From Synechococcus sp. A15-28 (GTDB lineage Bacteria > Cyanobacteriota > Cyanobacteriia > PCC-6307 > Cyanobiaceae): DNA of 32,000 bases. The notes beneath the pieces were generated by a model that did no database searches, was not told the origin of the DNA, and was given only the letters and a program-made list of their open reading frames with translations. Where the stretch lies: contig NZ_CP047931.1 in assembly GCF_014280175.1 (NCBI RefSeq), forward strand, positions 870,001 through 902,000, in the 5' to 3' direction. Made by a program: the position numbers and the translations under genes. Below are positions 2,920 through 22,374 of the stretch, one piece after another (within the stretch, counting starts at the first letter, position 1; every line of letters starts with the position of its first letter).

Positions 2920-4023
2920 GTGTTCGTCTTCTCAGCCAAGCCACGTCTCAGGCTCCTGCTTCTTGGCCTGCTTCTGCTTCCTTGCACTGCAGCCCGTCCT
3001 GTCCTGGCCCATGGATCCCATGGGGGAGGTGATGAGGAACTTGAGGCTGGTGAGATTGATTTCACACCTCTGATCACCATCGAAGGGCATGGTGGGTTTG
3101 AAACCAACTTGGATGACAACCCCAAGCATTACGCCATTGATGGATCGTTTGGTGGCGTGTTCCAGTGGGGCTTGGGCAACGGCGGAAGTCTCACCATTGA
3201 AGCCGCCGTGGGACCTTCAGTGGTGTGGGGTGAGGCTGAACATTTTTACGGCAAGGTGCATGTTGATGATGATCATGGTCATGAGGACGATCATGATCAT
3301 CACGACGAACATGCTGAGCACGATCATGACGATGATCACCACGCCCGTCGTCGGCTTTCACGGGAAGATGATCACGACCATCACGATGACCATGACGATC
3401 ATCACGACGAGCACGCTGAGGATGATCATCATGAGCACGCAGAGCATGCCCACGATGAACACGGGCATGGTGATCCTGAGCTAAAACGAACAGACGTTCG
3501 TGGTTTCGTCAGCGTGCGTTACGCACCCAACGATCGCCTCAGCCTCACGGTGGATTGGTTGCCCTATTACGTCACCAAGGATCAAGGTGACGATATCCAG
3601 GGCTTAAAGAATGAGTTGGGTGCTGAAGTGGTTTGGGCGCTTGGCGATGGTGACGTTGATTTCGCACTGGGTGATGGTCTGGAGAACATTCTCGAGGGCG
3701 TTTTTCTCTCAGTGATGCACCGTCAGGGATGGGAATCCGATGGCACCTGGATGGGCAACTACACCGATCCCCGCCTGGGCGTTGGTTTCAACATTGATCA
3801 GATCAATGTCACCATCGATGCCGGGCCTCGTTTCTACACACCTGGCAGCTATTCAGGTTTGAGTCAGCGGACTGACTTTGCCGGTGAAGTGGAAGTCTCG
3901 ATCCCCGTTGGCGATGCCGTTCTGTTCGCCCATTGGAAGCCGACCTACAGCCCGGATGATTCTCCTGGCTGGGGTGAGGGATGGCAGCACCACCTCGGTA
4001 CGGGGGTGACTTTCAGCTTCTGA
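2920..4023 (+). CDS. Exported His/Asp-rich protein, putative outer-membrane beta-barrel metal-capture protein
   Basis: GTG start. Signal peptide LLLLGLLLLPCTAARPVLA|HG. A ~72-residue His/Asp/Glu tract spans residues 114-185. The C-terminal two thirds consist of alternating amphipathic beta-strand-like segments ending in GVTFSF with a terminal Phe, which resembles the OMP beta-signal. It lies directly downstream of znuA. Confidence 0.75.
   Translation: MFVFSAKPRLRLLLLGLLLLPCTAARPVLAHGSHGGGDEELEAGEIDFTPLITIEGHGGFETNLDDNPKHYAIDGSFGGVFQWGLGNGGSLTIEAAVGPSVVWGEAEHFYGKVHVDDDHGHEDDHDHHDEHAEHDHDDDHHARRRLSREDDHDHHDDHDDHHDEHAEDDHHEHAEHAHDEHGHGDPELKRTDVRGFVSVRYAPNDRLSLTVDWLPYYVTKDQGDDIQGLKNELGAEVVWALGDGDVDFALGDGLENILEGVFLSVMHRQGWESDGTWMGNYTDPRLGVGFNIDQINVTIDAGPRFYTPGSYSGLSQRTDFAGEVEVSIPVGDAVLFAHWKPTYSPDDSPGWGEGWQHHLGTGVTFSF
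3259..3474 (+). repeat. Coding low-complexity His/Asp/Glu tract with an internal duplication
   Basis: HVDDDHGHEDDHDHHDEHAEHDHDDDHH-ARRRLSRE-DDHDHHDDHDDHHDEHAEDDHHEHAEHAHDEHGHGD. The module DHDHHD(E/D)H...DEHAE occurs twice. The GAT/CAT/GAC/CAC codon runs also create spurious overlapping ORFs (3089..3484). Confidence 0.8.
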
Positions 4024-9872: not shown

Positions 9873-10054
9873 ATCCCTGCCTTGATCCATTCTACCTCTG
9901 AATCACTGCATCGATAGTGAACGTTGTTGCTGGTAAGTAAGAATCCTGGAGATCAATGCTGATGTTTCTTGGCGTTGCTACTAATTAATTGTATTCACTA
10001 ATAGACAGCTTGAGATTCTTGTGCCTGATGTGTTTCTTTCGTTCTGTGTGCCTG
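9873..10054 (+). repeat. att-like unit A2: strongly decayed, AT-enriched copy of gene upstream region + 5' end + arm
   Basis: TCCCTGCCTTGATCCATTCTACCTCTGAATCACTGCATCGATAGTGAACGTTGTTGCTGG... aligns with 21141-21200 (ACCCTGACCTGATCCATTCCTCTGCAGAATCGCTGCATTGATGGTGAGCGTGGTGGCTGG...). GAATCCTGGAGATCAATGCTGATGTTTCTTGGCGTTGCT aligns with GAATCCTGCGGATCAGCGCTGGGGTTTCTGGCCGCTGCT. The following ACTAATTA...TCTTGTGCCTGATGTGTTTC...TGTGTGCCTG is a degenerate arm. Confidence 0.65.
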
Positions 10055-10327: not shown

Positions 10328-11044
10328 ATGTCTTCTGGCTGGACCTCGATGCAACGTGATCGGCAGCCCGAAGTCATGGACCAGCCGGGGCTCGATCCAG
10401 CCGAGCACGACCGAGCCCTTCAAGGTCTTCGTCGTATCAACGGAATCAGTCGCTGTGTGCCAGGGCTGTTTCGTCACGTAGAGGCGCTCGCAGGTGAGAG
10501 TCCAGCCACTCAGCTGAGCGTGCTTGAGCTGGCTTGCGGAGGTGGCGATACGGCGATTGAGCTTGCTGCGCTTGCCCGTAGACGCGATTTGGATGTATTG
10601 GTTCAAGCCTGCGATCTGAATCCTGAAGCGGTGCGTCTCGCCCGCCGCAATGTGGCCAGATCAGACAGCAACGTTGGTGTGTTTGTTGCTGATGCTTTGG
10701 ACCCGTCTGAATCCAAACAATTTGACGTGGTGTACTGCACCCTTTTTGTTCACCATCTCGATCCACCCGATGTGGTGCGCCTACTCAAAGGGATGACAGC
10801 TAGGGCTCGTCGACTTGTGATTGTCGATGATCTAATTCGCAGCCGTCTTGGGTATTCCTTGGCTTGGATGGGTACACGACTGCTGAGTCGATCCTGGGTG
10901 GTTCATCACGATGGTCCACTGTCGGTGAAGGGAGCTTTTACTCCTTCAGAGATCCTGGACCTCGCCTCTCAAGCTGGATTGCACGATTGTGTCTTGGAAC
11001 GGACCTGGCCCGAGCGCTACCGGCTCTGCTGGAGACCCCACTGA
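10328..11044 (+). CDS. Class I SAM-dependent methyltransferase
   Basis: SAM motif I VLELACGGGD and an acidic loop after beta-2 (ACDLN). ATG at 10328 is preferred over the ORF-track start at 10247. The next gene starts 2 nt after its stop. Confidence 0.8.
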   Translation: MSSGWTSMQRDRQPEVMDQPGLDPAEHDRALQGLRRINGISRCVPGLFRHVEALAGESPATQLSVLELACGGGDTAIELAALARRRDLDVLVQACDLNPEAVRLARRNVARSDSNVGVFVADALDPSESKQFDVVYCTLFVHHLDPPDVVRLLKGMTARARRLVIVDDLIRSRLGYSLAWMGTRLLSRSWVVHHDGPLSVKGAFTPSEILDLASQAGLHDCVLERTWPERYRLCWRPH

Positions 11045-11045
11045 C

Positions 11046-12191
11046 ATGCAAAGCAATTGGGATGTAATCGTGATAGGGGCAGGAGTTGCCGGAGGCTTGG
11101 CAGCCTTCGATTGTGCAAATCGCGGCCTGCGAGTTCTGCTCGTCGAAAAACGGTCCTTCCCTCGCTGGAAGGTGTGTGGTTGCTGCTTTAACGCCAATGC
11201 CTTGGCAGCTCTGACTGCCACAGGCCTCCCGAACTTCTTTGATGATCAGGGTGCCGTGCCCCTCGATCAACTTCGTCTTGGTTGGGGTGGCAAGTCGCTC
11301 AAGCTTGAGTTGCCAGGCGGTTGGGCACTTTCGCGGGAGCGCTTCGATCAGGCTTTGGTCAACGCGGCTGAGGCTGCTGGTGCAACAGTGCGCTTTCAAA
11401 CCGGTGCCGTGCTTGAGGAGATCACTCCCGATGGGCGAATGGTGCGATTACGACCGCCGGGTGATGCTCCCATTGAACGGATCAGGGCCCGTGTGGTTCT
11501 CGTTGCAGCCGGACTGCAGCACCAGGTGATGTCCCCCTCCCATGCGGCCAGCTCGAGGAGCACCCCGGAATCGAGGCTTGGGGCAGGCTGCCTCATCAAT
11601 GATGACGACGGCTCCTACGAGTCAGGGGCGATTCATATGGCCATTGGCCAGCGTGGCTATGTCGGCTTGGTTCGACGTGAGGACTGTGCTCTCAACCTGG
11701 CGGCCGCTTTCGACCGCGCTGTGGTCAAGTCGTCTGGCGGTGTGGCGCGTGCGGCACAACTTGTTCTGACTCAAGCCGGCTTCACTTTGCCTCGAAGATT
11801 GGAGTCGTCTCGTTGGCAATTAACTCCTGCGCTCACCCGTCGTGCTGGTTTGTTCGCTGGGGATCGCTTTTTGTTGCTTGGCGACGCGACCGGTTATGTG
11901 GAACCGTTTACCGGTGAGGGTATGGCGTGGGCTCTCGCCGCTGGGGCGGCGGTTGCTCCATTTGTGGAGGAGGCTCAGGGTGAATGGTCAGCGGATCTCG
12001 AGCGTCGCTGGCAAAGGAGGTTGGTGGATCTGACGATCAGCCGTCAACGGGTTTGCAGTGTGTTGTCGACGTTGTTACGACAACCGCTCACCACAAATGT
12101 GTTGTTCAACCTTGGGTGCCAATGGCCTGCGATCCCGCAGCGCATTATTCGCAGCCTCAACCGGGTATCTCCTCTGATGGCGAGTTCCTAA
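11046..12191 (+). CDS. FAD-dependent oxidoreductase/hydroxylase (geranylgeranyl-reductase / UbiH-like family)
   Basis: ATG at 11046 gives MQSNWDVIVIGAGVAGGLAAFDCANRGLRVLLVEKR (GxGxxG plus acidic end of beta-2). A later GDATGYVEPFTGEGM motif (GD-x6-P-x-x-G-x-G) is typical of flavoprotein hydroxylases. Confidence 0.8.
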   Translation: MQSNWDVIVIGAGVAGGLAAFDCANRGLRVLLVEKRSFPRWKVCGCCFNANALAALTATGLPNFFDDQGAVPLDQLRLGWGGKSLKLELPGGWALSRERFDQALVNAAEAAGATVRFQTGAVLEEITPDGRMVRLRPPGDAPIERIRARVVLVAAGLQHQVMSPSHAASSRSTPESRLGAGCLINDDDGSYESGAIHMAIGQRGYVGLVRREDCALNLAAAFDRAVVKSSGGVARAAQLVLTQAGFTLPRRLESSRWQLTPALTRRAGLFAGDRFLLLGDATGYVEPFTGEGMAWALAAGAAVAPFVEEAQGEWSADLERRWQRRLVDLTISRQRVCSVLSTLLRQPLTTNVLFNLGCQWPAIPQRIIRSLNRVSPLMASS

Positions 12192-12194
12192 ACC

Positions 12195-13283
12195 ATGCCT
12201 CTCATCCTTCATGGCATTGGTACGGCGGTGCCATCTCGGCGACTGAGCCAGGCAGATGCCGTGCAGGTGGCACATCGCATTAATGCCGAAACCCCTGAGC
12301 AGGTAAGGCTGATGACACGCATCTATCAGAAAACCAAGGTGCTCAGCCGTGGAAGTGTGCTGCTGGAGAAGGATGGAGACGATGGCGCGATCCAGGAGCG
12401 TCTCAGTTTCTACGGCGAAGAAAGCCCTGGTACCGCCGAACGGATGCAGGCGTTTGAGGATCATGCCGGTGAGCTGGCTCTTGAGGCCGCTGCAAAGGCG
12501 CTAAGCGATAGCGATATCTCAGCCACGGCGATCACGCATCTCGTCACTGTCAGTTGCACCGGTTTTCAGTCACCAGGTGTTGACCTTTTCTTGATTGAAA
12601 AGCTTGATCTATCGCCGAGTGTTCAGCGAACCCATATCGGATTCATGGGATGCCACGCTGCGCTGAATGGCTTGCGTGTTGCCCACGCCTTTGCGGAGAT
12701 GGATCCCAAGGCTGTTGTTCTGCTGTGCGCTGTAGAGCTTTGCAGCCTCCATATGGCTTATGGCTGGCACCCAGAGCAGGTTGTTGCCAACGCTTTGTTT
12801 GCCGATGGGGCGGCTGCCGTTGTCGCCTCCGTCAATCCTGTCCCTACCCATCAGACCTTGGCGTTGCGACGCAGTGGCTCGATGGTGATTCCAAACAGCT
12901 CAGATCTGATGCACTGGGAGATTGGCGACCATGGTTTTGCGATGGGCTTGTCGCCCCTTGTTCCGGAAACGGTTGGCGCTGCCTTGTTGCCCTGGTTGCG
13001 AGATTGGCTCAAAGAGCAGGCCATTGATCTTGAGGCGGTGACGAGCTGGGCTGTTCATCCAGGGGGCCCCAAGATTCTCTCGACCTGTGCCGAGGTTTTG
13101 TCGCTGGACCCAGGCCTACTGCACGAGTCCAGAGGCATACTTCAGGATCACGGCAACATGTCATCCGCAACGATTCTGTTCATCCTTGAACGGTTGAGGC
13201 GGCGGGAATGTTCCGGTCCTTGTCTTGCACTTGCCTTTGGCCCTGGGCTGAGTGCTGAGGTAGCACTTTTTGATTTTCAATAA
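12195..13283 (+). CDS. Type III polyketide synthase (chalcone/stilbene synthase superfamily)
   Basis: Catalytic Cys in VSCTGFQSPG, His in WAVHPGGPKIL and Asn in HGNMSSATILF. 362 aa. It starts 3 nt after the oxidoreductase stop. Confidence 0.9.
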   Translation: MPLILHGIGTAVPSRRLSQADAVQVAHRINAETPEQVRLMTRIYQKTKVLSRGSVLLEKDGDDGAIQERLSFYGEESPGTAERMQAFEDHAGELALEAAAKALSDSDISATAITHLVTVSCTGFQSPGVDLFLIEKLDLSPSVQRTHIGFMGCHAALNGLRVAHAFAEMDPKAVVLLCAVELCSLHMAYGWHPEQVVANALFADGAAAVVASVNPVPTHQTLALRRSGSMVIPNSSDLMHWEIGDHGFAMGLSPLVPETVGAALLPWLRDWLKEQAIDLEAVTSWAVHPGGPKILSTCAEVLSLDPGLLHESRGILQDHGNMSSATILFILERLRRRECSGPCLALAFGPGLSAEVALFDFQ

Positions 13284-21039: not shown

Positions 21040-21180
21040 CCTAACCCACACCGCATTGGCACAGGCGGCTTGTTTGGTGTTTTGGAGTGAGTTTGTGTCG
21101 TGTTGGCTGAGCTGATTGCCCCATCTGGTTTCCGGTTTTGACCCTGACCTGATCCATTCCTCTGCAGAATCGCTGCATTG

Positions 21181-22374
21181 ATGGTGAGCGTGGTGGCTGG
21201 AGCTGGTGTGAATCCTGCGGATCAGCGCTGGGGTTTCTGGCCGCTGCTGCCGCTCTATCCCTATGGCCGCCGCCACACGGTGTTCAGTGAGTTGATCCCT
21301 GGCCAGCTCTGGAGTCTGGAGCAGCTGCAGGGGGTGTATTACGTGGCCGTTCCGGTGCGGCTCACCGTTGCCAAGGTGCCCGGTGGCTTGATGTTGGTGA
21401 ACCCACTGCCGCCCACCGGTGAGGTTCGCCAAGCCATTGCCGGGCTGGAACAGCAGCATGGGCCCGTGCGCACGATCGTGCTGCCCACCGCCTCTGGTCT
21501 GGAGCACAAGCTGCCCCTCGGCCCCCTGGCCCGCGCCTTCCCGGGTGCAGAAATTTGGGTGTGTCCGGGTCAGTGGAGTTTTCCGGTGCAGTTGCCTCTG
21601 GCCTGGTTGGGCGTTCCGGCACGCCGCACCAAGGTCTTGTTCGACGATGGCGTCCCCCATGGCGATGTTTGTGAGTGGTTGTCGTTGGGACCCCTCGACC
21701 TTGGTGTCGGTCGTTTCCAGGAGATCTCCTGTTTTCATCGTCCGTCAGGCGCTCTGCTGGTCACCGACGCCCTTGTGGGCATCAGTGTTGAGCCGCCTTC
21801 GCTGTTTGATCTCGACCCCACGCCTCTGTTGTTCCACGCCCGCGAGCGGGGTGATCAGCCTTTGCACGACACGCCCGAGGCGCGTCGACGTGGTTGGGCG
21901 CGGCTGGTGCTGTTTGCCTCCTACCTGCGGCCGGAACCGTTGGAGGTGCCAACCCTCAAGGAGGTGTTTCGCCATGCCTTTCGCCCCGGTCTGCGATCGG
22001 CCAAAGCCCACTTCGGGCTCTATCCCTTTCGGTGGAAGCCGGGTTGGGAGGCCGCCGCTGCTGAGTTGATGAGGGAAGCGGAGCCCAAAATTCAGGTGGC
22101 GCCGGTGTTGGAGCGGTTGGTGTTACCCCGTGCCAAGAAATCTCTGCTCGATTGGTTGGAGCAGCTGGGTCAATGGAGCGATCTGCGCTGGCTGGTGTCA
22201 GCCCACTACAGCGCTCCCATCGGTTTCACGACAGGAACGTTGGCTTCACTTGTTCGGGATCTGACCGAACGCCCCTGGGCACCCAGCACCAGCAACTGGG
22301 AGTTTCTTGGATCGATTGATCAACGCTTGCTGGATCTCGGCGTAGTGCCTGAGCAACCTCGTCTCAGAAGTTGA
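21181..22374 (+). CDS. DUF4336-like protein (metallo-beta-lactamase-like fold); target gene of the island integrations
   Basis: About 397 aa with sequence conserved in cyanobacteria and plastid-bearing eukaryotes (WGFWPLLPLYPYG..., VTDALV). Its upstream region and first ~24 codons are the sequence reiterated at 9637, 9873 and 13453. Confidence 0.75.
   Translation: MVSVVAGAGVNPADQRWGFWPLLPLYPYGRRHTVFSELIPGQLWSLEQLQGVYYVAVPVRLTVAKVPGGLMLVNPLPPTGEVRQAIAGLEQQHGPVRTIVLPTASGLEHKLPLGPLARAFPGAEIWVCPGQWSFPVQLPLAWLGVPARRTKVLFDDGVPHGDVCEWLSLGPLDLGVGRFQEISCFHRPSGALLVTDALVGISVEPPSLFDLDPTPLLFHARERGDQPLHDTPEARRRGWARLVLFASYLRPEPLEVPTLKEVFRHAFRPGLRSAKAHFGLYPFRWKPGWEAAAAELMREAEPKIQVAPVLERLVLPRAKKSLLDWLEQLGQWSDLRWLVSAHYSAPIGFTTGTLASLVRDLTERPWAPSTSNWEFLGSIDQRLLDLGVVPEQPRLRS

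Follow-up and report, generated by a model that had tools for sequence, protein, structure and literature searches.

Organization of the three-gene operon

The window analyzed here is a 32,000-nt stretch of the Synechococcus sp. A15-28 genome (NZ_CP047931.1, positions 870,001 to 902,000). At positions 10328‒13283 of the window, three co-directional open reading frames (ORFs) on the + strand encode a methyltransferase, a flavin adenine dinucleotide (FAD)-dependent oxidoreductase, and a type III polyketide synthase (PKS), in this order. We consider, with a probability of roughly 85%, that this region is a functional hidABC-type, i.e., hierridin-like, biosynthetic operon of marine Synechococcus. 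The first junction (TGA-C-ATG) has a gap of 1 nt and the second (TAA-ACC-ATG) a gap of 3 nt. An earlier interpretation made from this DNA alone (hereafter the sequence-only reading) had given gaps of 2 and 3 nt, of which the 3-nt gap holds and the other is 1 nt too long. All three genes are real, intact, and under purifying selection, and the ratio of nonsynonymous to synonymous substitution rates (dN/dS), computed for each gene against three relatives, is 0.10‒0.17.

The AT-rich leader at 9988‒10327 (+ strand, 41.5% GC) lies 5' of the methyltransferase gene, is presumed to be the promoter region, and is kept together with the operon in three related loci (L003, L157, and L081). The GC fraction is 0.415 in the leader, 0.575 in the hid genes, and 0.62‒0.65 in the flanks. 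A promoter scan of 9400‒13800 detected no promoter-like site, the leader has no sigma-70 consensus, and an Rfam scan of 9000‒14000 at E-values up to 1 gave zero matches. Since terminator-like sites in 9400‒13800 occur at the chance level (5 found and 5.0 expected), the hairpin at 13250‒13268 was given no weight as a terminator.

The hidA-like gene (10328‒11044, + strand) encodes a class I S-adenosylmethionine (SAM)-dependent methyltransferase of 238 residues, which matches Methyltransf_25 (7e-15) and scores 310 bits against the NCBIfam equivalog PRK06202, above the cutoff of 243. Its SAM motif, ELACGGGD, is located at residues 67‒74, and its dN/dS is ~0.11. In the metagenome contig L081, which is otherwise near-identical, the methyltransferase gene (8133‒8850 of that contig) is frameshifted after codon 38; the shift could reflect misassembly of a 10x contig or a true loss of function.

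The hidB-like gene (11046‒12191, + strand) encodes a geranylgeranyl-reductase-like FAD-dependent oxidoreductase of 381 residues, presumed to be a ring hydroxylase, with matches to FAD_binding_3 (4.5e-11) and DAO. The enzyme has GAGVAGG (GxGxxG) at residues 11‒17 and GD at residues 279‒280, and the motifs PRxKVCGxC and GDAxGYVEPFTGEG are conserved at a level of at least 95% among 60 homologues. Against TIGR02032, the geranylgeranyl-reductase superfamily, it scores 108 bits, under the curated cutoff of 158.8. Judged from its sequence, the enzyme belongs to the geranylgeranyl-reductase-like branch of FAD enzymes.

The hidC-like gene (12195‒13283, + strand) encodes a type III PKS of 362 residues, a predicted long-chain alkylresorcinol synthase, with matches to Chal_sti_synt_N (2.5e-27) and Chal_sti_synt_C (2.6e-20). 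Its catalytic triad, Cys153 (FMGC), His288 (HPGG), and Asn321 (GNMSS), aligns with Cys175, His313, and Asn346 of PKS18 and is invariant in 83 of 83 aligned PKS sequences. The Cys-His-Asn triad, the SAM motif, and the FAD motif, which the sequence-only reading had described as intact, are all present in the translations, and the family matches by hidden Markov models agree with a methyltransferase, a FAD enzyme, and a type III PKS. Met250 aligns with Cys275 of PKS18, which we take, from PKS18 structure work, to be the position of CHS Phe265; Steely1 has Leu there. Met occupies the CHS-Phe265 position in the window PKS and in all 80 related loci, the set that also served for the gene order counts. 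Many PKS homologues (clusters P0015, P0019, P0027, P0100, and others) are named 'prepilin-type processing-associated H-X9-DG protein' in JGI/IMG, and this label looks like a propagated annotation error.

Relationship to hierridin-type and other phenolic lipid clusters

The same gene order is colinear in 59 of the 80 related loci, which include Cyanobium, many Planctomycetota, Acidobacteria, and Longimicrobiales. Since the neighbors of the trio vary between strains (amine oxidase, chromate transporter, PhoH/PIN, LOG-like protein, and sulfatase), the three genes seem to be a conserved functional unit. The same trio is borne, adjoining two-component sensor genes, on plasmid PALBO1 of Paludisphaera borealis (NZ_CP019083.1, 87177‒90144), and when plasmids were searched by tblastn with the FAD enzyme, this planctomycete plasmid was the only match. 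As the sequence-only reading had noted, no acyl-activating gene belongs to the trio: the stretch between the flanking repeat units A2 and B, described below, contains only the trio genes, and none accompanies the trio in any relative examined. In Synechococcus sp. MIT S1220, the hid trio lies between perfect direct repeats of 4.6 kb (1‒4614 and 16473‒21086 of the locus, at a spacing of 16,472 bp), which are part of a highly repetitive giant gene and suggest a recent duplication of 16.5 kb in this genome.

The genomes closest to the window by PKS are those of marine Synechococcus, with 83‒89% identity in single-cell genomes and 86% in strain MIT S1220, and the closest protein cluster at the 90% level comprises 131 members, which come from ocean metagenomes. 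An exact-sequence lookup of the window PKS returned no record. In the identity matrix, the PKS is ~77% identical to other marine Synechococcus enzymes, 54‒57% to Cyanobium-type enzymes, 49‒56% to planctomycete and acidobacterial enzymes, and ~30% to PKS18 and Steely1. Neighbor-joining trees place the marine Synechococcus PKSs within the family on a deep branch of their own, separate from the Cyanobium branch.

In cyanobacteria, the hidABC cluster was described for hierridin in Cyanobium sp. LEGE 06113 by Costa et al. (2019), who found that recombinant HidA methylates 5-pentadecylresorcinol in vitro (PMC6836626). Larsen et al. (2021) reported 47 hierridin-like clusters, mostly in Prochlorococcus and Synechococcus, with the usual order hidA>hidB>hidC; these clusters form clade 3.2222, and the HidC clade has a conserved Met where CHS has Phe265 (PMC8086630). 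The trio in the window thus belongs to a type of cluster that is already on record for marine picocyanobacteria. In our comparison, operons with the same gene order from five Cyanobium-group genomes, together with published motif tables, stood in for HidA, HidB, and HidC. Against the Cyanobium counterparts, the methyltransferase is 50‒53% identical, the FAD enzyme 47‒51%, and the PKS 51‒54%. The window operon shares with hidABC the three families, their order, the lack of an acyl-activating gene, and the Met at the CHS-Phe265 position, and differs from it in that its proteins are only about 50‒57% identical to the Cyanobium-type ones and the marine Synechococcus enzymes occupy their own deep branch. 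The PKS strings MGCHAA, LFAD, FAMGL, and HPGGPK are identical to those in the rows for WH 8102 and WH 8103 in the supplement of Larsen et al. (PMC8086630), i.e., to the active-site motifs of the hidABC-type clusters in these strains. The match to hierridin-type clusters of picocyanobacteria proposed in the sequence-only reading is therefore borne out by gene order, by 47‒54% protein identity to Cyanobium, by Met250, and by these strings.

The mtr-fdo-t3pks operon of planctomycetes (Gimesia maris and Rhodopirellula baltica) has the same tricistronic order, with a PKS identity of 47‒50%, but belongs to another phylum. Milke et al. (2024) found that planctomycete PKSs of this operon type give pentadecyl- and heptadecylresorcinols (C15/C17) in C. 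glutamicum (PMC10896814). When the Gimesia methyltransferase and flavoenzyme were added, a single methylation, probably C-linked, was observed, and the role of the flavoenzyme was left open (PMC10896814).

The sequence-only reading had also seen in the trio the same enzymes as in srsABC of Streptomyces griseus. The enzyme classes and the pathway logic, in which an alkylresorcinol is methylated and then oxidized, do agree with srsABC and with pkqABC of Mycobacterium smegmatis. However, the PKS gene comes first in the actinobacterial srs and pkq operons, followed by the tailoring genes (PMC9927152), whereas it is last in the window. In addition, SrsA, PKS10, and PKS11 fall into clade 2.22 and HidC into clade 3.222 in the tree of Larsen et al. 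(PMC8086630); this published tree and PKS11, as a sequence proxy for SrsA, were the basis of our clade contrast. Since the gene order differs and the published tree separates SrsA from HidC, srsABC is most likely an analogue and not a member of the same operon family. The ArsABCD system of Azotobacter vinelandii is similar in that ArsB synthesizes long-chain alkylresorcinols and that ArsB and ArsC form the clade next to the Hid clade, as its sister (PMC8086630). That system differs in having a dedicated fatty-acid synthase of type I (ArsA) and another PKS that forms pyrones, and in lacking a methyltransferase and a FAD enzyme. ArsC is not among the 60 structure matches listed for the window PKS.

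Predicted pathway and alternative products

The alkylresorcinol scaffold and its methylation are predicted by analogy with these homologues, and we infer the length of the starter, the site of methylation, the hydroxylase function of the FAD enzyme, the end product, and the physiological role. The type III PKS would take a long-chain fatty acyl thioester from primary fatty-acid synthesis, such as palmitoyl-acyl carrier protein or palmitoyl-coenzyme A (CoA), and add three malonyl-CoA units to this starter. Ring closure by a decarboxylative C2-C7 aldol condensation would then give a 5-alkylresorcinol, such as pentadecylresorcinol. The SAM-dependent methyltransferase would methylate the ring or the ring hydroxyls, and the FAD enzyme would oxidize the ring, most likely by hydroxylation. 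The end product may be a methoxylated alkylphenol, a hydroquinone, or a quinone lipid.

Several observations weigh against a hierridin-type operon. The best-scoring solved structure for the PKS, PKS18, is an alkylpyrone synthase, and the identity to Cyanobium-type PKSs, which stand in for HidC, is only 54‒57%. The FAD enzyme has the geranylgeranyl-reductase motifs K-x-C-G and GDAxG...GEG, which are compatible with a reductase role. The Gimesia methyltransferase appeared to C-methylate and not to O-methylate, and the FAD enzyme was given no settled role in that work (PMC10896814). Moreover, no product has been reported from any marine Synechococcus.

The end product may be an alkylbenzoquinone or hydroquinone that serves as a membrane redox carrier or antioxidant, as the actinobacterial polyketide quinones do, and not a hierridin-type metabolite. 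In M. smegmatis and Streptomyces, enzymes of these three classes produce polyketide quinones, which take the place of menaquinone under hypoxia or in spores (PMC9927152), and the cassette has no redox enzyme other than the FAD enzyme. However, the gene order of the actinobacterial operons is different, their PKSs fall outside the HidC clade in the published tree, and hierridin B/C is the sole product tied to this operon type in cyanobacteria (PMC6836626). A patchy, island-borne distribution also suits an accessory trait better than a respiratory component. We regard such a quinone or hydroquinone carrier as rather unlikely.

A second alternative concerns the FAD enzyme, which could be a halogenase, explaining the chlorination of hierridin C, or a reductase acting on C=C bonds or quinones. 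Among solved structures, it is matched best by the FAD-binding halves of halogenases and by digeranylgeranylglycerophospholipid reductase, and no chlorinating enzyme has been assigned for hierridin C (PMC6836626). The top halogenase entries, 5bva and 5bul, align only with residues 4‒169 of the enzyme, its N-terminal FAD-binding part. Since the WxWxIP halogenase motif is absent from the sequence, the halogenase assignment was rejected. A reductase role is possible because the K-x-C-G and GDAxG...GEG motifs are shared with geranylgeranyl reductases, as the conserved PRxKVCGxC and GDAxGYVEPFTGEG motifs also indicate. On the other hand, the full-length matches are of the monooxygenase type: the QhpG monooxygenase model (65 bits), LodB/GoxB, and the UbiH-like hydroxylase 6ui5, the sole full-length match among the solved structures. 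Hierridin B needs one extra, third ring oxygen, and the FAD enzyme is the sole redox enzyme in the cassette, with no other oxygenase present. A role as a ring hydroxylase is thus most likely, in view of the product chemistry and the relatedness to QhpG, LodB, and GoxB, and a halogenase or reductase is improbable. Of the 'flavoprotein hydroxylase' in the sequence-only reading, the flavoprotein is confirmed by the FAD motif and the FAD_binding_3 match; the hydroxylase part goes beyond a geranylgeranyl-reductase-like sequence whose Gimesia homologue has a role left open.

It is very unlikely that the PKS is a long-chain alkylpyrone synthase like PKS18, which closes by lactonization, with methylated pyrones as the products of the operon. 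PKS18 does score highest among the solved structures (2.6e-50, 175 bits, compared with 124 bits for PKS11), and Larsen et al. do not exclude pyrone formation by some cyanobacterial enzymes (PMC8086630). However, PKS18 ranks first only because no closer structure exists. The ~30% identity to PKS18 contrasts with 50‒57% to HidC-type and planctomycete enzymes, the position of PKS18 Cys275 is Met in the window PKS as in the HidC clade, and every tested member of this PKS clade gives alkylresorcinols (PMC10896814).

Finally, a decaying, non-functional island passenger is highly improbable: the variable island, the GC fraction of the genes below that of the flanks, the adjoining decayed repeat copies, and the methyltransferase frameshift in L081 would fit this explanation, but the three ORFs are intact with invariant catalytic residues and low dN/dS, the nearest protein cluster is well populated in ocean metagenomes, and the frameshift may be an assembly error.

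Cassettes at the 5' end of the DUF4336 gene

The hid operon lies in an island with repeated copies of the 5' end of a DUF4336 gene, which itself is located at 21181‒22374 (PF14234, 2e-117). The repeated segment of ~102 nt consists of the DUF4336 promoter and the first ~24 codons, and the copy at 21154‒21254 belongs to the intact gene. Unit B (13442‒13640, + strand) is composed of a 102-nt copy (13442‒13543), 90% identical to 21154‒21254, and a tail of ~95 nt; it closes the hid module on its right side and opens the adjacent Nit1C module on its left. Unit A2 (9877‒9987, + strand), at the left border of the hid module, is a decayed copy of the DUF4336 promoter and 5' end, with 70‒73% identity to units B and C (E-values of 8e-7 to 2e-12); its ATG is now ATA, and in-frame stops are present. 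The decayed A2 copy occurs at the same place 5' of the trio in L003, L157, L081, and L083. Further upstream, unit A1 (9657‒9785, + strand) contains the last 48 nt of the repeat (9657‒9704) and a tail of ~80 nt (9705‒9785), with 87.5% identity to 13499‒13626 and 90% to 21207‒21254, and appears to be a relic of the left end of an older module, most of which has been deleted.

The homology of the repeats to the intact DUF4336 gene ends sharply after GCTGCTGCC(A/G)CT, and units A1 and B run on into the common tail of ~95 nt. In unit B, this tail (13544‒13640) contains direct motifs, TTGTCCC twice and GTGCAACTG twice, which are conserved across 22 aligned copies. An RNA fold in the tail was rejected since only three pairs were predicted, without covariation in the 22 copies. 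The paired motifs look like candidate protein-binding sites, and the conserved tail may be a putative recombinase-binding arm of the cassettes. Across the loci, we found 29 full units, 34 copies of the first part only, nearly all of which belong to the intact gene, and 22 tails with a partial first part.

Comparison with related loci reveals the modular structure of the island. Contig L081 is 96.3% identical to window 2138‒13543 and then resumes at window 21154, so that the 7.6-kb Nit1C module (13544‒21153), which lies exactly between two 102-nt direct repeats, is absent. This module encodes a MSMEG_0569 flavoenzyme, MSMEG_0572/Sll0783, the nitrilase Nit6803, a radical SAM protein, a GNAT protein, an AIR-synthase-like protein, DUF1348, and DUF3050. 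In L081 and L083, the hid trio directly abuts the DUF4336 gene, and in L003 the Nit1C module is upstream of the hid module, on the opposite side from its place in the window. L103, L104, and L140 have other cargo at the same site and no hid genes. The sequence-only reading had taken the operon for a separate cargo between A2 and B, and the flanking DUF4336 5'-end copies, together with the precise absence of the Nit1C module from L081, uphold this. The evidence supports the view that the hid trio forms a cassette complete in itself, placed in an insertion hotspot with variable cargo at the start of the DUF4336 gene.

In loci L085‒L158, the DUF4336 5' end is likewise a cargo hotspot in marine Synechococcus. 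Its modules carry a chromate transporter, SBF, PhoX, RimK, a PtxD-like dehydrogenase with a phosphonate-binding protein, Nramp, and PepX, and further modules carry rhodanese/MBL with TauE, a Phd antitoxin, and, in L103, an IS21 IstA/IstB pair. The identity between the window and L081 is 96.3% to the left of the DUF4336 junction (13543/21154) and 88.5% to the right; since the identity drops across this junction, the attachment (att) site may also be a recombination boundary between genome segments of different history. Elsewhere in the window, the ORF at 2920‒4023 (+ strand), which adjoins a ZnuA gene, encodes a signal-peptide-like N-terminus and a long His/Asp/Glu-rich stretch (DHGHEDDHDHHDEHAEHDHDDDHH...), and its product may be a metal-binding envelope protein. 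A DNA repeat family, D1 (repeats at 3232‒3482), derives from this His/Asp/Glu-rich stretch.

A tRNA or tmRNA as the integration target was rejected since the window contains neither, and the repeated target is the DUF4336 5' end. No integrase is present among the annotated genes of the window island. In related islands, searches with Pfam (30 ORFs) and PHROGs (102 ORFs) detected cargo genes, the IS21 pair, and transposase families, and no integrase is among the families listed, which for PHROGs are 25 of the 59 matched. A recombinase matching the tail motifs was likewise not found among the families listed for the window island and the sampled modules. Carriage of the cassette by a phage or virus was also rejected since neither the att core pattern, the tail pattern, nor the PKS had a match in viral contigs or GenBank phages.

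These islands resemble the tycheposon islands of Prochlorococcus (Hackl et al., bioRxiv 2020.12.28.424599), in which tandem cargo modules are separated by partial target copies and the cargo is adaptive, e.g., phosphite, metal, and nitrogen genes. They differ in that the target in the window is the 5' end of the protein-coding DUF4336 gene and not a tRNA/tmRNA, and in that no integrase was found in the window island or the sampled modules among the families listed. We tentatively propose, at somewhat less than even odds, that marine Synechococcus has an as yet undescribed system for site-specific cassette exchange, of which the hid trio is one cassette and the DUF4336 5' end the target. Each cassette would start with a replacement copy (~102 nt) of the DUF4336 promoter and first ~24 codons, and a conserved arm of ~95 nt with the paired TTGTCCC and GTGCAACTG motifs would come next. 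In this scheme, the cassettes would lack a recombinase of their own, and one supplied in trans would mobilize them.

The operon adds one marine Synechococcus lineage, common in ocean metagenomes, to the carriers of hierridin-type clusters. Since no product has been shown for the marine Synechococcus branch, the 3-kb cassette is a compact target for heterologous expression. Compared with the already known trio, the insertion hotspot at DUF4336, which lies largely outside the original finding, is the fresher and most promising lead: its modules are gained, lost, and reordered between close relatives. A cassette in this hotspot offers a tangible path by which phenolic-lipid biosynthesis could spread horizontally, a matter of mere speculation in earlier papers. 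If the cassette-exchange proposal is true, phenolic-lipid biosynthesis would be traded between lineages as a plug-in unit, beside the Nit1C, phosphite, chromate, PhoX, and other modules.

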